Below, one piece after another: positions 694 to 31,620 of a stretch of 34,772 nucleotides of DNA; the stretch's first letter is position 1; each line of letters begins with the position of its first letter. The stretch is from a virus. Taxonomy: Duplodnaviria; Caudoviricetes. The stretch covers positions 1-34,772 of IMG/VR virus record IMGVR_UViG_3300020045_009801. The stretch is one strand, 5' to 3'. Position numbers and translations under genes: made by a program. Below the pieces are notes generated by a model. The model searched no databases. It was given only the letters and a program-made list of their open reading frames with translations, and was not told the DNA's origin.

Positions 694-1739
694 AATTTTT
701 TACGTTCGTCTTCTCTGATCGCCGCTTCAAATGCCAGATCTTTCTGTTTGTCGTTATTAATCTTAGCGAGGTCCAATACAGCTTCCCATAAGTCGGCCTT
801 TCCTTTTGGTGTTGCCAGATCATACTCCCCACTCATAACGGCTTCCGTGACAAAATCTTCATACTCTTGGCGATCTTCGGCAGTTAATTCCAATTTGAAT
901 TTATACCATCCATTGAGTACAAGTTCTTTAAGGTCACTTTCGATCAATGCTTTAGCGATAGGGGCAATACCACTTCTCTTGGTAGCTAAGTCCTCCTTGC
1001 TACGCGAAGTTTCTGCTTCGATTTCGGCTAAAATATCAATTTCAGAGTCCTTTGGAATCTGCACATCAGCCCCGAGGTTAGGCAATGATTTTCGTGCGCT
1101 TGCAGCCAAATAATCGACTCTATCTTTATCGTCCTCCGATAAGGAATCGTATCCTTCTGCGATTGCCTCCGGATCAAGTCCTGAAGTTAATAGCTTTTGA
1201 CGGAATGGGTTCCTGATCTGACCAGGAGCTTCCAACTTAGCTGCTAACTCAATTACTTCGAGCGATGGTAATTCGTTCACATTACTGTGCAAAATGCGGC
1301 TAATTACCGCTTCTTTTCCTTTGTAATCTTCCTGTTTTGCGAGCTGTGCTGCCACATACGCCTTTTCATCAGGGAAATAACTCAGGATATTCTGAGATGA
1401 TTTCAGTTTTTCTACGAGCTTTGGAATTACTTCAAGTTTCTTATTTACAGAATCCAAGCCATTTACTCTTTCTTTGTAGGCTTCAATTTCTGCTTCATCC
1501 TTAAATTCAATTCCGAATAATTTTGATGCTACGGCCAATCTTTTATTGGCAGGGAGCGTATCAATATCAATTTCATTCTCTGCTTCAACTTCGACTTCTT
1601 CTGCCGGAGTTTCTTCAGTTTCTTCAATAACCTCTTCAGCAGTTTCTTCTACCACTTCTTCAACTACTTCTTCTTTTTCTTCGGTAGTCTCTCGTTCGGC
1701 TTGTCTCTTCAATAAATAATCGTCTAATTCGTCTGACAT
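648..1739 (-). CDS. Acidic scaffold-like protein between portal and capsid gene; last ~14 aa are chimeric
   Basis: Glu-rich low-complexity N-terminus, helical character, position after portal. Confidence 0.6.
   Translation of the reverse strand: MSDELDDYLLKRQAERETTEEKEEVVEEVVEETAEEVIEETEETPAEEVEVEAENEIDIDTLPANKRLAVASKLFGIEFKDEAEIEAYKERVNGLDSVNKKLEVIPKLVEKLKSSQNILSYFPDEKAYVAAQLAKQEDYKGKEAVISRILHSNVNELPSLEVIELAAKLEAPGQIRNPFRQKLLTSGLDPEAIAEGYDSLSEDDKDRVDYLAASARKSLPNLGADVQIPKDSEIDILAEIEAETSRSKEDLATKRSGIAPIAKALIESDLKELVLNGWYKFKLELTAEDRQEYEDFVTEAVMSGEYDLATPKGKADLWEAVLDLAKINNDKQKDLAFEAAIREDERKKFLTNWDGGSNLLSSL
694..748. repeat. Right arm of 55-bp inverted repeat
   Basis: aattttttacgttcg...gatctttctgtt is the reverse complement of 1-55. 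Confidence 0.97.
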
Positions 1740-1773
1740 GGTTCAAATTTTTGGTTATGGTATTCTGTTCTGG

Positions 1774-1804
1774 TAAATATATAAATTTATTCTACAAATG
1801 CGAA
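1774..1804 (-). promoter_or_regulatory. Bacteroidota-type promoter variant TTCG-N19-TATATTTA
   Basis: Intergenic, just upstream of the 1739 start; resembles TTTG-N19-21-TAnnTTTG. Confidence 0.5.
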
Positions 1805-29673: not shown

Positions 29674-30061
29674 ATGGAACATCCTGTCCATCGTCTGCTG
29701 TGCTGCTTTGAAATCCTGCGCTCTCGGCACGTTGCTGAACAGCGGAGTTATACTCAGAGGTTTCTGCACCGGCTAATTCCATTTTCCACAGTTTTAGGTT
29801 GGTGGCATAAGCGAGTTGTCCATTTGCTTTGCTCGTGTACTCATTCCCGACTACATTGGCGTGAACTGTAACGGTAGCCCCTGCTTTGAATTTGTCGATA
29901 ATTGGATACTTGTCGGTTGATACCTGAATCTCGTACTTGTTACTGTACTTGTCATTGGTCATGTTCGGTTCTTTAACCCGCAGGAATCGGGATTTAAACC
30001 CATTCTTGTCAATCTCCGGAGTAATGGAGATAATTTGTCCTGTAAATACTAATGCTGCCAT
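29669..30061 (-). CDS. DUF3127-like OB-fold (SSB-like) protein
   Basis: G.II.I....F.SR....KY.N....G..VTV..N..G.EY....L..WK; acidic DDGQDVPF tail. Confidence 0.8.
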   Translation of the reverse strand: MAALVFTGQIISITPEIDKNGFKSRFLRVKEPNMTNDKYSNKYEIQVSTDKYPIIDKFKAGATVTVHANVVGNEYTSKANGQLAYATNLKLWKMELAGAETSEYNSAVQQRAESAGFQSSTADDGQDVPF

Positions 30062-30229
30062 TTTATAATTGGTTTAAAAATGATTCGAAATGAACCGGAC
30101 AGTGCAAACCTATCCGGTTCTGCAAACTACACAGCTTAAAGTTGATGTAGAATTTCTTCCTTTACCCGATGCTGATTAAAGCATGGAACCCCTATCCTAT
30201 AAGCCACAATCAAAATTTTCAAAGTACTG

Positions 30230-30302
30230 AGGAAATACAAAGACTCGAACTTTGTGACCAATTCCCGACTTGCTTTGTCAGCCTAATCATTGGGTTATTT
30301 CC
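30230..30302 (-). ncRNA. tRNA-like element (73 nt) with canonical T arm and non-canonical D/anticodon arms
   Basis: Acceptor GGAAAUA/UAUUUCC, T arm CAAAG-UUCGAGU-CUUUG, arm CUGAC-AAAGCAA-GUCGG. Confidence 0.6.
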
Positions 30303-30565
30303 GTCCCACTACCTAAGTCAGTGCAGTGATTCTGTCCTTTTATTTCGTACCCTTAGGATCGGGCTTTGTGATTGGCTAACCGATCAAAGTATGCCAACCT
30401 GATTTGTTGAAATTTTAAATGCATTTAGTCGTAGCGGATAGATTTTACCATCCTGCTTCTGAGTTTTAAATTACTAGCGCATAACTAACTTCTCCTTTCT
30501 ATTCGTGTTAAAAACTTCTTAGTGCCTGGAAACCCCCGACTTATTTCAGATCGAGGGTTCAAGTT

Positions 30566-30719
30566 TAGATGTGCGGAAATGAGTTTCGGTTTAAGACTCC
30601 GGCCCACTTTCTGTCAAAGAGTGTAGTTTGAGATTTCCTGTTTGGTTTAGTTATCAGGAATCCCCATTTAGTGACAATTGTAACTGTCTGTATAATTACT
30701 ACCACTTCTGGCACATCTA
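30566..30719 (-). ncRNA. Putative ~155-nt multi-stem structured RNA
   Basis: Closing stem UAGAUGUGC/GCACAUCUA encloses four or five hairpins; G:U pairs favour the minus strand. Confidence 0.5.
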
Positions 30720-30766
30720 CTGTCAATGGATACTTCAACATATAATAGAACTTAGTGATTTCGAAT

Positions 30767-30904
30767 GCCCCTAACGTTAGGGCGACCCGTCCAACTACGC
30801 TGCTACTTTAGCTTCGCTATTGAAAAGTGAAATTGTTTTGCCTGTTACGGCTTGTCGCTCTCTTCTATCCATACTATCTGCCAGTCAAACCTAAAGTCTC
30901 CCCC
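30767..30904 (-). ncRNA. ssrA: Permuted tmRNA, coding piece
   Basis: Begins GGGGGAGAC...GGUUUGAC; P2 strands; tag ORF; terminal hairpin GCCCUAACGUUAGGGGC (3' end approximate). Confidence 0.88.
30795..30842 (-). other. tmRNA tag reading frame (A)GKTISLFNSEAKVAA*
   Basis: UAACA then GGC resume codon; ends in AA-stop. Confidence 0.85.
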
Positions 30905-30907
30905 CGA

Positions 30908-30986
30908 TGGTGCGCGGTCGGATTTTAACCGAACCTTGGCCGTAATTATTTATCTTCGATGGCCCTATTCTTCAGAACTTCCGCAC
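30908..30986 (-). ncRNA. tRNA-like element with encoded CCA inside the tmRNA intervening sequence
   Basis: GUGCGG/CCGCGC-A-CCA; D-like GUUC/GAAU; GGCC/GGCC stem with 19-nt loop; UCGG-UUAAAAU-CCGA. Confidence 0.65.
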
Positions 30987-31039
30987 TTTTTTTTGACAGT
31001 ACTAACGCGACTGGTTAGCGATCAATTGGCGAATCGATG

Positions 31040-31100
31040 TGGAGGAGGTCGGATCTGCCCCGACGTGTTGACAGTTTCAAAATAGCCTCAATGAACGACT
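31040..31100 (-). ncRNA. ssrA: Permuted tmRNA, acceptor piece
   Basis: T arm GUCGG-GGCAGAU-CCGAC, then CUCCUCC-A pairing with GGGGGAG including G3:U70; CCA not encoded; 5' end approximate. Confidence 0.88.
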
Positions 31101-31103
31101 CAA

Positions 31104-31135
31104 CAAAGATCGGAATAAATAAATATATATACAAA
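31104..31135 (-). promoter_or_regulatory. Promoter for the tmRNA locus, TTTG-N20-GATCTTTG
   Basis: One mismatch to consensus; directly upstream of the acceptor piece. Confidence 0.55.
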
Positions 31136-31152
31136 TTATTTGCCCATTATTT

Positions 31153-31187
31153 TAAAACAAAAATGCCCCTGAATTACCAGAGGCATT
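31153..31187 (-). terminator. Intrinsic terminator
   Basis: aatgcc-c-ctg / cag-a-ggcatt hairpin followed by a U-tract on the minus strand. Confidence 0.7.
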
Positions 31188-31266: not shown

Positions 31267-31620
31267 CTAAAATAGTTCTGATCCGGTACAATACCTATAA
31301 AGGTTCTGAAGTTCGTCAAGGTAGTCAATGTCTCTTATCTTTTGACCTTGTACGATCCATTCAAAGCTCATCGATGTGTAATTAAAAGAAAGCCTTCCGG
31401 GCATTCCGTTTAAAACAAATGAATTAGCTCCGGTCTTTTCGAATCCTGGCACATTCTTTAATTGCGATTCAGATAAATAAACCCGGGTAACGTCAGTAAC
31501 TTCAAATTCGGATCCATCTTTGATGATTATCCTGATGCTGTCCTGATCCGGAATAACAATTTTGGATAATCCATGTTCGGTCTGTACGAAATTGCCTGAT
31601 CTGAAATCTTTAAGGTCCAT
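31267..31620 (-). CDS. Small Bacteroidota-phage protein, paralog of 6585..6917
   Basis: DFRSGNFV...GFEK...YLDELQNLY...TG.EL. Confidence 0.75.
   Translation of the reverse strand: MDLKDFRSGNFVQTEHGLSKIVIPDQDSIRIIIKDGSEFEVTDVTRVYLSESQLKNVPGFEKTGANSFVLNGMPGRLSFNYTSMSFEWIVQGQKIRDIDYLDELQNLYRYCTGSELF

Follow-up and report, generated by a model that had tools for sequence, protein, structure and literature searches.

A permuted phage tmRNA with a degenerate tRNA-like element nested in its exchangeable spacer

Described systems and the permuted tmRNA of the phage contig

The precursors of two-piece tmRNAs are described as being cut by tRNA-processing enzymes, and of 11,946 permuted sequences only one, GCA-2688965__sp002688965.2, is reported to have an intact tRNA-Ala in its spacer (Nawrocki, Petrov, Williams 2025, PMC11915505). 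The accepted model for the origin of the permutation is a tandem duplication with loss of the outer segments (PMC3978253, as described there), a model that requires no nested tRNA. Non-decoding tRNA-like folds are described from plant mitochondria, where so-called t-elements lie by processed RNA ends and are thought to direct RNase P or RNase Z (PMC1920247). Theta ribozymes, which are minimal HDV-like ribozymes, adjoin the 3' ends of phage tRNAs; tmRNA is unmentioned in the main text of the respective report (PMC10879173).

The window, i.e., the whole stretch of DNA that was analyzed, is a whole virus record of 34,772 bases with a completeness of about 57%. Its open reading frames, nearly all on the minus strand, encode a portal protein, the large terminase, a helicase, HNH nucleases, and SSB. 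A tmRNA with a nested 79-nt element is located in a non-coding stretch between the ORF ending at 31267 and the ORF starting at 30061. The window and GCA-2688965__sp002688965.2 have in common that a tRNA-type element is enclosed completely by the spacer of a permuted tmRNA. Compared by their descriptions, the two cases differ, because the published tRNA is intact, scores highly and stems from a nominally archaeal metagenome bin, whereas the window element is degenerate, lacks an anticodon loop and belongs to a phage. The arrangement is thus less singular than the first-pass annotation had suggested: the nested tRNA-Ala is published, and in 2 of 62 long spacers of unrelated phage tmRNAs there are tRNA-like inserts scoring above the window element (20.6 and 14.1 bits). 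At the level of titles and abstracts, with subscription papers mostly outside the search, no degenerate tRNA-like element in a phage tmRNA spacer was found to be described. The likeness to t-elements, as these are described, is one of working and not of membership. The A8 leader of the window element and its ACCA 3 nt from G1 fit by geometry, whereas t-elements sit at the ends of organellar mRNAs and the window element sits in a phage tmRNA spacer, next to a tmRNA whose relatives do without it.

With ARAGORN and with Rfam at gathering scores, no match of any kind was obtained for the contig. A relaxed Rfam scan detected tmRNA_permuted (RF04321) at 31099-30795 on the minus strand with 28.8 bits and an E value of 0.0013. 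The gathering score of RF04321 is 47 bits, which is exceeded by five of the nine homologs described below (75.8-48.9) and not reached by the other four (46.6-26.1). The permuted layout is complete, with the acceptor piece upstream, followed by the intervening sequence and the coding piece. The acceptor piece (31040-31099, minus strand), the 5' end of which is predicted from the start of the RF04321 alignment at 31099, contains a helix-2 strand, the T arm (31064-31048) with the 7-nt loop GGCAGAU, the 3' strand of the acceptor stem (31047-31041), and the discriminator A (31040). The coding piece (30795-30904, minus strand) begins with G1 at 30904 and comprises the 5' strand of the acceptor stem (30904-30898), the D loop, a helix-2 strand, and the tag reading frame (30795-30842, minus strand). 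The tag frame reads GKTISLFNSEAKVAA-stop and has a hydrophobic Ala-Ala end; the homologous tags follow the form GKTI...(V/L)AA in most of the nine relatives. A hairpin past the tag stop (30767-30783, minus strand) is likely the 3' end of the coding piece, and hairpins trailing the stop codon are also present in the homologs displayed. The acceptor stem has 7 bp including G3-U70, the D loop is divergent, and the CCA is not fully encoded. In the predicted fold of the precursor, the tmRNA acceptor stem pairs with a probability of 0.96-0.99 in the presence of the nested element, and the T arm with 0.83. By its anatomy, the permuted tmRNA at 31099-30795 is genuine.

An intrinsic-terminator-like hairpin (31162-31187, minus strand; 11 pairs and a T tail), which was assigned by consensus match, closes the upstream ORF run. 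A candidate promoter of the Bacteroidota type (31104-31135, minus strand), consisting of TTTG, 20 nt, and a -7 box with one mismatch, was identified by eye. It was judged against the Bacteroidota consensus, and the start site would fall near 31099. A search with a narrower promoter pattern yielded no match at 31104-31135.

The tmRNA resembles the two-piece tmRNAs of RF04321 from Alphaproteobacteria, Betaproteobacteria, and Cyanobacteria in the order of the pieces, G3-U70, A73, and the Ala-Ala tag end. The family of the window tmRNA differs from them in that it is phage-borne and linked to Bacteroidota, its tags start with GKTI, its T and D loops vary widely, and its spacers are long and modular. 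In addition, the hosts tied to the family keep a one-piece tmRNA: three of four genomes searched carry a separate one above the cut-off, with the tag GENNYALAA. Because the neighbors of most homologous loci are phage-type genes and three of the four genomes carry such a separate one-piece tmRNA, the host of the phage is likely a member of the Bacteroidota.

The spacer and the nested tRNA-like element

The intervening sequence, or spacer, comprises 135 nt (30905-31039, minus strand) between the discriminator A at 31040 and G1 at 30904. The first-pass annotation had listed two small hairpins, an A8 run, and the tRNA-like element in it. The length, the A8 run, and the element were recovered, whereas the 5' part folds as one hairpin instead of two. 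The 5' part contains a GCCAAW core motif (31024-31030, minus strand), which is present in 9 of 10 family spacers versus 3 of 101 unrelated phage spacers, and a conserved 24-nt hairpin or possible pseudoknot module (30996-31019, minus strand), which is common to the homologous loci L256, L263, and L264 and to the contig of the public run X4. The 4-bp stem of the module is paired in all four sequences compared (window, L256, L263, and L264), and one position exhibits four pair types; this covariation was reached by 7 of 500 shuffles and rests on four sequences only. The homologs thus back a short stem with compensatory changes, together with a possible second, crossing stem. The region of the GCCAAW motif and the 24-nt module (30996-31030) is better conserved than the nested element, and it had no match in Rfam. 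The module is followed by the A8 run (30987-30994, minus strand), a predicted single-stranded leader of the nested element with unpaired probabilities of 0.95-1.0 at six of eight positions. The folding energy of the whole spacer is unremarkable compared to shuffles (z -0.24).

A likeness to theta ribozymes was considered for the 5' spacer module alone and not for the nested element. Both are small structured RNAs that are phage-borne and located just 3' of a tRNA-type acceptor end. In contrast to the theta and HDV-like ribozymes, which have a nested double pseudoknot with a catalytic C and a cleavage site at most 5 nt from the tRNA 3' end, the module starts 6-21 nt past the discriminator and, as judged by eye, is without the HDV double-pseudoknot order. 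The ribozyme families of Rfam had no match in the window or in the homologous loci. For the nested element, a hammerhead reading of its CUGAnGA word was rejected, as the matching GAAA and stem II are absent by eye.

The nested degenerate tRNA-like element occupies 30908-30986 (minus strand) and was characterized by its fold, alignment to tRNAs, a covariance model, and a geometry test. The 79-nt cloverleaf drawn at 30986-30908 in the first-pass annotation is identical, in its arms, its loops, and its A-CCA, with both the MFE and the centroid structure of the isolated 79 nt (-20.3 kcal/mol). It consists of a closing stem of 6 bp including one G-U (30986-30981/30917-30912), a D-like arm of 4 bp with a 4-nt loop (30978-30967), a GGCC stem (30964-30961/30941-30938) with a 19-nt loop, a T arm of 4 bp with the loop UUAAAAU (30932-30918), and the A-CCA (30911-30908), which ends 3 nt before G1 of the tmRNA; all parts are on the minus strand. 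The stability of the fold is not unusual (z -1.58), and 14 of 200 shuffles fold equally well.

The acceptor stem of 6 bp with a free CCA after it belongs to the MFE register. In a second register of the closing stem, slipped by 2 nt and built of five Watson-Crick pairs, the discriminator and the leading C of the CCA are themselves paired. In the precursor both registers are equally probable (0.44 versus 0.44), while in the isolated element the slipped register has a probability of 0.35 and the unslipped one of 0.64. The discriminator and CCA are free in one register (0.44-0.64) and paired in the other (0.35-0.44).

Several features depart from a canonical tRNA. In the MFE register the top half has 6 + 4 = 10 bp, compared to the 7 + 5 (12 bp) of a tRNA; the slipped register has the 12-nt spacing, but contains three unpaired positions and is not followed by a CCA. 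Of the tRNA T loop UUCRANY, U54, U55, and A58 are kept and C56 is replaced by an A, and the D loop is without the GG of the G18-U55 and G19-C56 elbow. In place of the 7-nt anticodon loop and its 5-bp stem there is a 4-bp stem with a loop of 19 nt or, in the alternative reading, a decayed arm. The element can be read as a tRNA in two incompatible ways. In the MFE structure (-20.3 kcal/mol), the D loop is short and the anticodon loop expanded; in the other (-13.2 kcal/mol), the D arm is canonical and Arg-like, and the 19-nt loop is filled by an anticodon arm that has decayed. Because the top half has 10 bp, C56 and G19 are changed, and the 7-nt anticodon loop is absent, the element cannot be a working tRNA. 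The description as a non-decoding element inside the spacer of a genuine permuted tmRNA is therefore borne out by the missing anticodon loop and the complete tmRNA anatomy.

The similarity to tRNAs was quantified in several ways. Local alignment to 30 distinct Draconibacterium tRNAs gave a mean score of 32.9, compared to 26.5 +/- 1.6 for shuffles, none of 300 scoring as high; the best single alignment score was equaled by 5 of 300 shuffles. The alignment score ranks 16th of 6940 windows of the contig. An ungapped match of 12/18 to the D arm of a host tRNA-Arg is reached by 71 of 23170 background 18-mers. With a covariance model of 29 tRNAs the element obtained 12.5 bits and was third of 15 contig matches (E 0.041), or E 0.0014 when the search was limited to the 1.2-kb non-coding region; the second-best match (14.1 bits) is antisense to an ORF and probably spurious. 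The element was not listed by a sequence-only HMM (nhmmer with a tRNA profile), ARAGORN called no tRNA on it, and Rfam RF00005, the cut-off of which is 29 bits, had no match to it even at E 10. Therefore, the tRNA signal is modest, and the model score is close to noise.

The geometry test demanded a T-loop motif in a stem of at least 4 bp, stacked on a closing stem of at least 5 bp, and an NCCA ending at most 6 nt from G1. None of 20000 dinucleotide shuffles of the spacer passed, and 15 of 20000 did once the CCA demand was dropped; the test was devised after the element had been seen, so the result flatters the element. As judged from its sequence, the element appears to be tRNA-derived and non-decoding.

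A second tRNA-like element is present in the window at 30230-30302 (minus strand). Among the contig matches of the tRNA model it ranks first (15.9 bits), and it has a perfect 7-bp acceptor stem, a 5-bp T stem, and a canonical T loop, while the D and anticodon arms are degenerate and no CCA is encoded. The contigs of runs X1 and X9 carry other letters in this stretch, and therefore it is another swappable cassette.

The homologous tmRNA family and the turnover of its spacers

The family search was based on patterns for the resume region and yielded nine homologous permuted tmRNAs besides that of the window. L256 and L259 are the two of eight pattern matches that were kept, L263, L264, and L266 three of four, and L300 and L301 two of three; in 335 genomes of the family of Draconibacterium, 30 loci were fetched, and of the four true ones L315 and L331 were new. 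Chance matches were removed before the family was counted (6 of 8, 1 of 4, 1 of 3, 26 of 30 fetched loci, and 6 of 7). A sample of 401 genomes of the order contained no further family member. The neighboring ORFs match phage families in most loci (terminase, portal, anti-repressor, Q-like antiterminator), and 14 of 29 proteins match PHROGs. The terminase of the window, used as query, was not found in four records with homologous tmRNAs, and therefore those phages are not established as close kin of the window phage. The family extends permuted tmRNA to Bacteroidota phages and prophage-like regions, beyond the three lineages behind the Rfam model. Permuted tmRNAs of Bacteroidota phages may already stand in Supplementary Table S2 of PMC11915505; what is new is a family of tmRNAs from Bacteroidota phages with covarying RNA modules in the spacers. 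The tmRNAs of L300 and L301 sit in Draconibacterium records, that of L300 in a prophage-like region of Draconibacterium aestuarii, and the two named Draconibacterium genomes offer a cultured or culturable setting for spacer processing.

The permuted order is common to all 10 family members, the spacers of which are 135, 43, 69, 181, 47, 234, 56, 329, 368, and 51 nt long. They are modular around the GCCAAW motif: the 24-nt module is present in the window, L256, L263, and L264, a hairpin in L300, L301, and L315, and a further block, about 240 nt long, in both L301 and L315. This block forms the first part of both spacers and exhibits 70% identity over 241 columns. It is predicted to fold into a long rod, the closing stem of which differs in letters yet stays paired, and it matches no Rfam family; on the predicted fold, it is a putative undescribed spacer-borne RNA.

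Across the family, the T and D loops of the tmRNAs are unusually variable (GGCAGAU, UUAGAAU, CUCGUUA, UUCGAYU); the tmRNAs may in this way escape RNases of the host, or their function may have become relaxed. The homologous loci form arrays of small RNAs, in which intact tRNAs occur together with many degenerate tRNA-like genes that keep the acceptor stem and the T arm. Such degenerate genes flank the tmRNA in L256, L264, L266, L300, L301, L315, and L331, and in several loci a tRNA-like gene ending just before the acceptor piece may set the 5' end of the piece. In L259 (2152-2220, minus strand) the body of an initiator tRNA-Met (called by ARAGORN; 35.6 bits with Rfam tRNA) forms the acceptor piece and has the acceptor strand of the tmRNA at its end; this tRNA/tmRNA chimera probably arose from a deletion between the two T arms. 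The spacer of L266 contains a multibranch fold closed by 7 bp and followed by A-CCCA (1720-1804, plus strand; 6.2 bits), and at its 3' end an ACCA directly before G1.

A comparison with the spacers of homologous phage loci had been proposed in the first-pass annotation, and the element was not found in any of the nine: no alignment exceeded shuffles, and none of them passed the geometry test. The upstream module of L256 matches that of the window in 32 of 35 aligned letters, and the L256 sequence then goes straight to G1. Relatives that are about 85-95% alike were retrieved from public runs from wastewater (X1-X4), freshwater (X6), and groundwater (X9); the X3 and X4 contigs are probably DNA. 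Terminases with 81-91% identity (P0001, P0002) are encoded on further contigs. In the X4 contig, the 24-nt module is directly ahead of G1. In the X3 and X9 contigs 196 other letters join 30904 to 31039, and therefore the whole spacer has been exchanged at its borders. The contigs of X1, X2, X3, and X4 continue with unlike letters just before the coding piece. The stretch 30909-30992 was without cover in X2, X3, X4, and X9, which was not counted as evidence. Because alleles with the same module reach G1 without the element, and close relatives swap the whole spacer, the element is optional.

Among the complete spacers, 2 of 10 have a CCA that ends at most 5 nt from G1, and so do 2 of 4 alleles that were read in part; this is slightly above a rough hand estimate of chance (about 1/14). 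Searches for further copies comprised a 14-base pattern for the 3' end of the element (121 IMG/VR loci, all chance) and a pattern for its T arm and 3' end (no match in GTDB genomes). The T-arm pattern of the window had no match in IMG/VR, and a GGCAGAT-loop pattern led to 13 loci, none of them of the window tmRNA family. No match was obtained by blastn against 50,697 annotated phages, and no relatives were found in IMG/VR via SSB or terminase. Two apparent homologies of the element, to L259 in the D-like arm and to L301 in an 11-base T-loop word, were discarded, as shuffles were as good in 288 and 389 of 1000 cases, respectively.

Permuted tmRNAs are common in large phages, and about 1600 stored IMG/VR stretches are estimated to contain one. 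Of 120 fetched IMG/VR loci with a GGCAG T loop, 112 are permuted. They contain 101 distinct spacers of 5-280 nt, the contents of which include small ORFs and folded inserts. In loci L122-L241, many spacers carry small ORFs with ribosome-binding sites, several of them in recurring families. ARAGORN found no intact tRNA in the 62 spacers of at least 55 nt. An ACCA at most 6 nt from G1 of a typical large-phage tmRNA occurs in 32 loci (10 distinct), and in none of them is it a nested tRNA; in eight of the 10 the spacer is very short and the CCA is that of the tmRNA itself, and in two the ACCA follows that CCA by a few bases. The behavior of tmRNA spacers as exchangeable slots is general.

Origin and possible roles of the nested element

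The explanation to which we incline, with confidence just above even, is that the element is a decayed tRNA, carried as optional cargo in an exchangeable spacer and released as a by-product or as punctuation. Its processing steps are predicted from sequence and fold. One precursor would be transcribed from a promoter near 31100, and its ends would pair into the tRNA-like domain of the tmRNA. RNase P would cut at G1 of the tmRNA (30904), 3' processing and CCA addition would complete the acceptor piece, and the spacer would be freed. The cut at 30904 would leave the nested element with a 3-nt trailer, and exonuclease trimming would expose its CCA. With its unpaired A8 leader and its stacked 10-bp top half, the element could be a second, weaker RNase P substrate that is cut at 30986. 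It would then work like a t-element, as punctuation that sets the conserved 5' module apart from the remaining spacer, and the product would be a short-lived, uncharged, non-decoding 79-nt RNA. A third RNA product of the precursor is thus plausible within this model, although RNase P may act poorly on the element, given that the G19-C56 elbow is lost and the slipped register has a probability of 0.44. The element likely entered by recombination within a local pool of tRNA and tRNA-like genes, with the conserved tmRNA pieces as crossover flanks, because intact and degenerate tRNA-like genes flank the homologous tmRNAs and one of them is present at 30302-30230 in the window. Against the interpretation as cargo, no homolog of the element was found, so that neither decay nor conservation is measurable, CCA ends near G1 are slightly in excess in the family, and the intact top half and the CCA 3 nt from G1 represent more order than free decay predicts, which favors selection for a function.

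Such a function is the subject of an alternative that we regard as unlikely, though worth serious attention: the element could be a selected small RNA, i.e., a CCA-ended tRNA mimic, uncharged and lacking an anticodon, which would titrate a defense protein or an enzyme of the host that binds tRNA. Apart from the intact top half and the position of the CCA 3 nt from the RNase P site of the tmRNA, this would be in agreement with the covariation of other spacer modules and with the tRNA-like elements at 30230-30302 and in the homologs, in which the top half is also intact and which suggest selection on top halves. Defense systems predicted to bind tmRNA or tRNA are described (PMC11090510). The distribution argues the other way, as the element is found in 1 of 10 complete spacers and is absent from the alleles read in the X runs. 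So does the structure: two pairs are missing from the top half, neither G19 nor C56 has been kept, the CCA is concealed by the slipped register about half of the time, and there is no anticodon loop left. Anticodon nucleases read the anticodon loop. Its loss makes the suggestion of the first-pass annotation that the element is a decoy against these nucleases a weak one, and binders of the T arm or the acceptor end would be likelier targets of a mimic. A wider version can be put forward tentatively, again as an improbable case: the spacer would be an expression cassette of interchangeable small RNAs set free by RNase P and 3' processing of the host, and the element a CCA-ended decoy against defense systems that bind tRNA or tmRNA, as one of several phage RNAs reduced to top halves. 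The other RNAs that might be released from such a cassette would be the covarying hairpin or pseudoknot, the rod of about 190-240 nt (L301, L315), and tRNA-like folds.

The opposite extreme, to which we give a rather small chance, is an inert decaying tRNA pseudogene that RNase P does not recognize and that is degraded with the rest of the spacer. The element is missed by ARAGORN and RF00005, its folding z score is only -1.58, it admits two incompatible tRNA readings, and it is private to one allele, all of which would be expected of a pseudogene. It would be less expected that, with several indels separating the element from a tRNA, the CCA and all 10 pairs of the top half are still in place, and that the geometry was present in 0 of 20000 shuffles.

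That the window allele requires the element as a cis-acting guide for RNase P and for the 3' trimming of the two tmRNA pieces, as the first-pass annotation had considered, is very improbable. The location 3 nt from G1, the divergent D loop of the window tmRNA, and the lack of an encoded CCA would fit a guide. However, relatives with the same acceptor strand and coding piece have the other 196-nt spacer or lead from the module directly to G1, as do L256 and X4, and 0 of 9 homologous spacers have the geometry. Moreover, the spacers of other phage tmRNAs can be as short as 5 nt, and the acceptor and T stems of the tmRNA are already a standard substrate. Hardly any weight is given to a chance fold of the spacer sequence: although the z score of -1.58, a covariance score within reach of the best noise match, and the post hoc nature of the geometry test would allow it, the sequence likeness to tRNAs and the geometry are separate signals, and both are beyond shuffles. 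The notion that the element is a relic of the permutation event in a tRNA array, as the first-pass annotation had also proposed, or a duplicate of the tmRNA's own T arm, can practically be dismissed, because the permuted order is present in all ten diverse loci and the element in one, and the spacer turns over as a whole between relatives about 90% alike, even if tRNA genes flank the homologous tmRNAs and the T stem of the element repeats T-stem letters of the tmRNA that vary among homologs, a match resting on three free positions. The distribution as it stands points to element-less spacers as the ancestral state.

Taken singly, the insert is of little consequence, as it seems to be optional and another nested tRNA has already been published. 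The spacers themselves are of wider importance. Spacers of two-piece tmRNAs are treated as waste, yet here they hold modules with compensatory changes and turn over among close relatives. If the modules are released as stable RNAs, the spacer would be a delivery slot for small RNAs that rides on RNase P, and a place to seek RNA decoys of phages.

Past the tmRNA, about 700 non-coding bases of the window (30070-30760, minus strand) had no notable match in Rfam; they contain several hairpins and are partly conserved in relatives. Within them, the words at the start and end of the stretch 30714-30571 resemble words of the nested element, and the 5' end of the element has a 10-base complement at 30580-30571.
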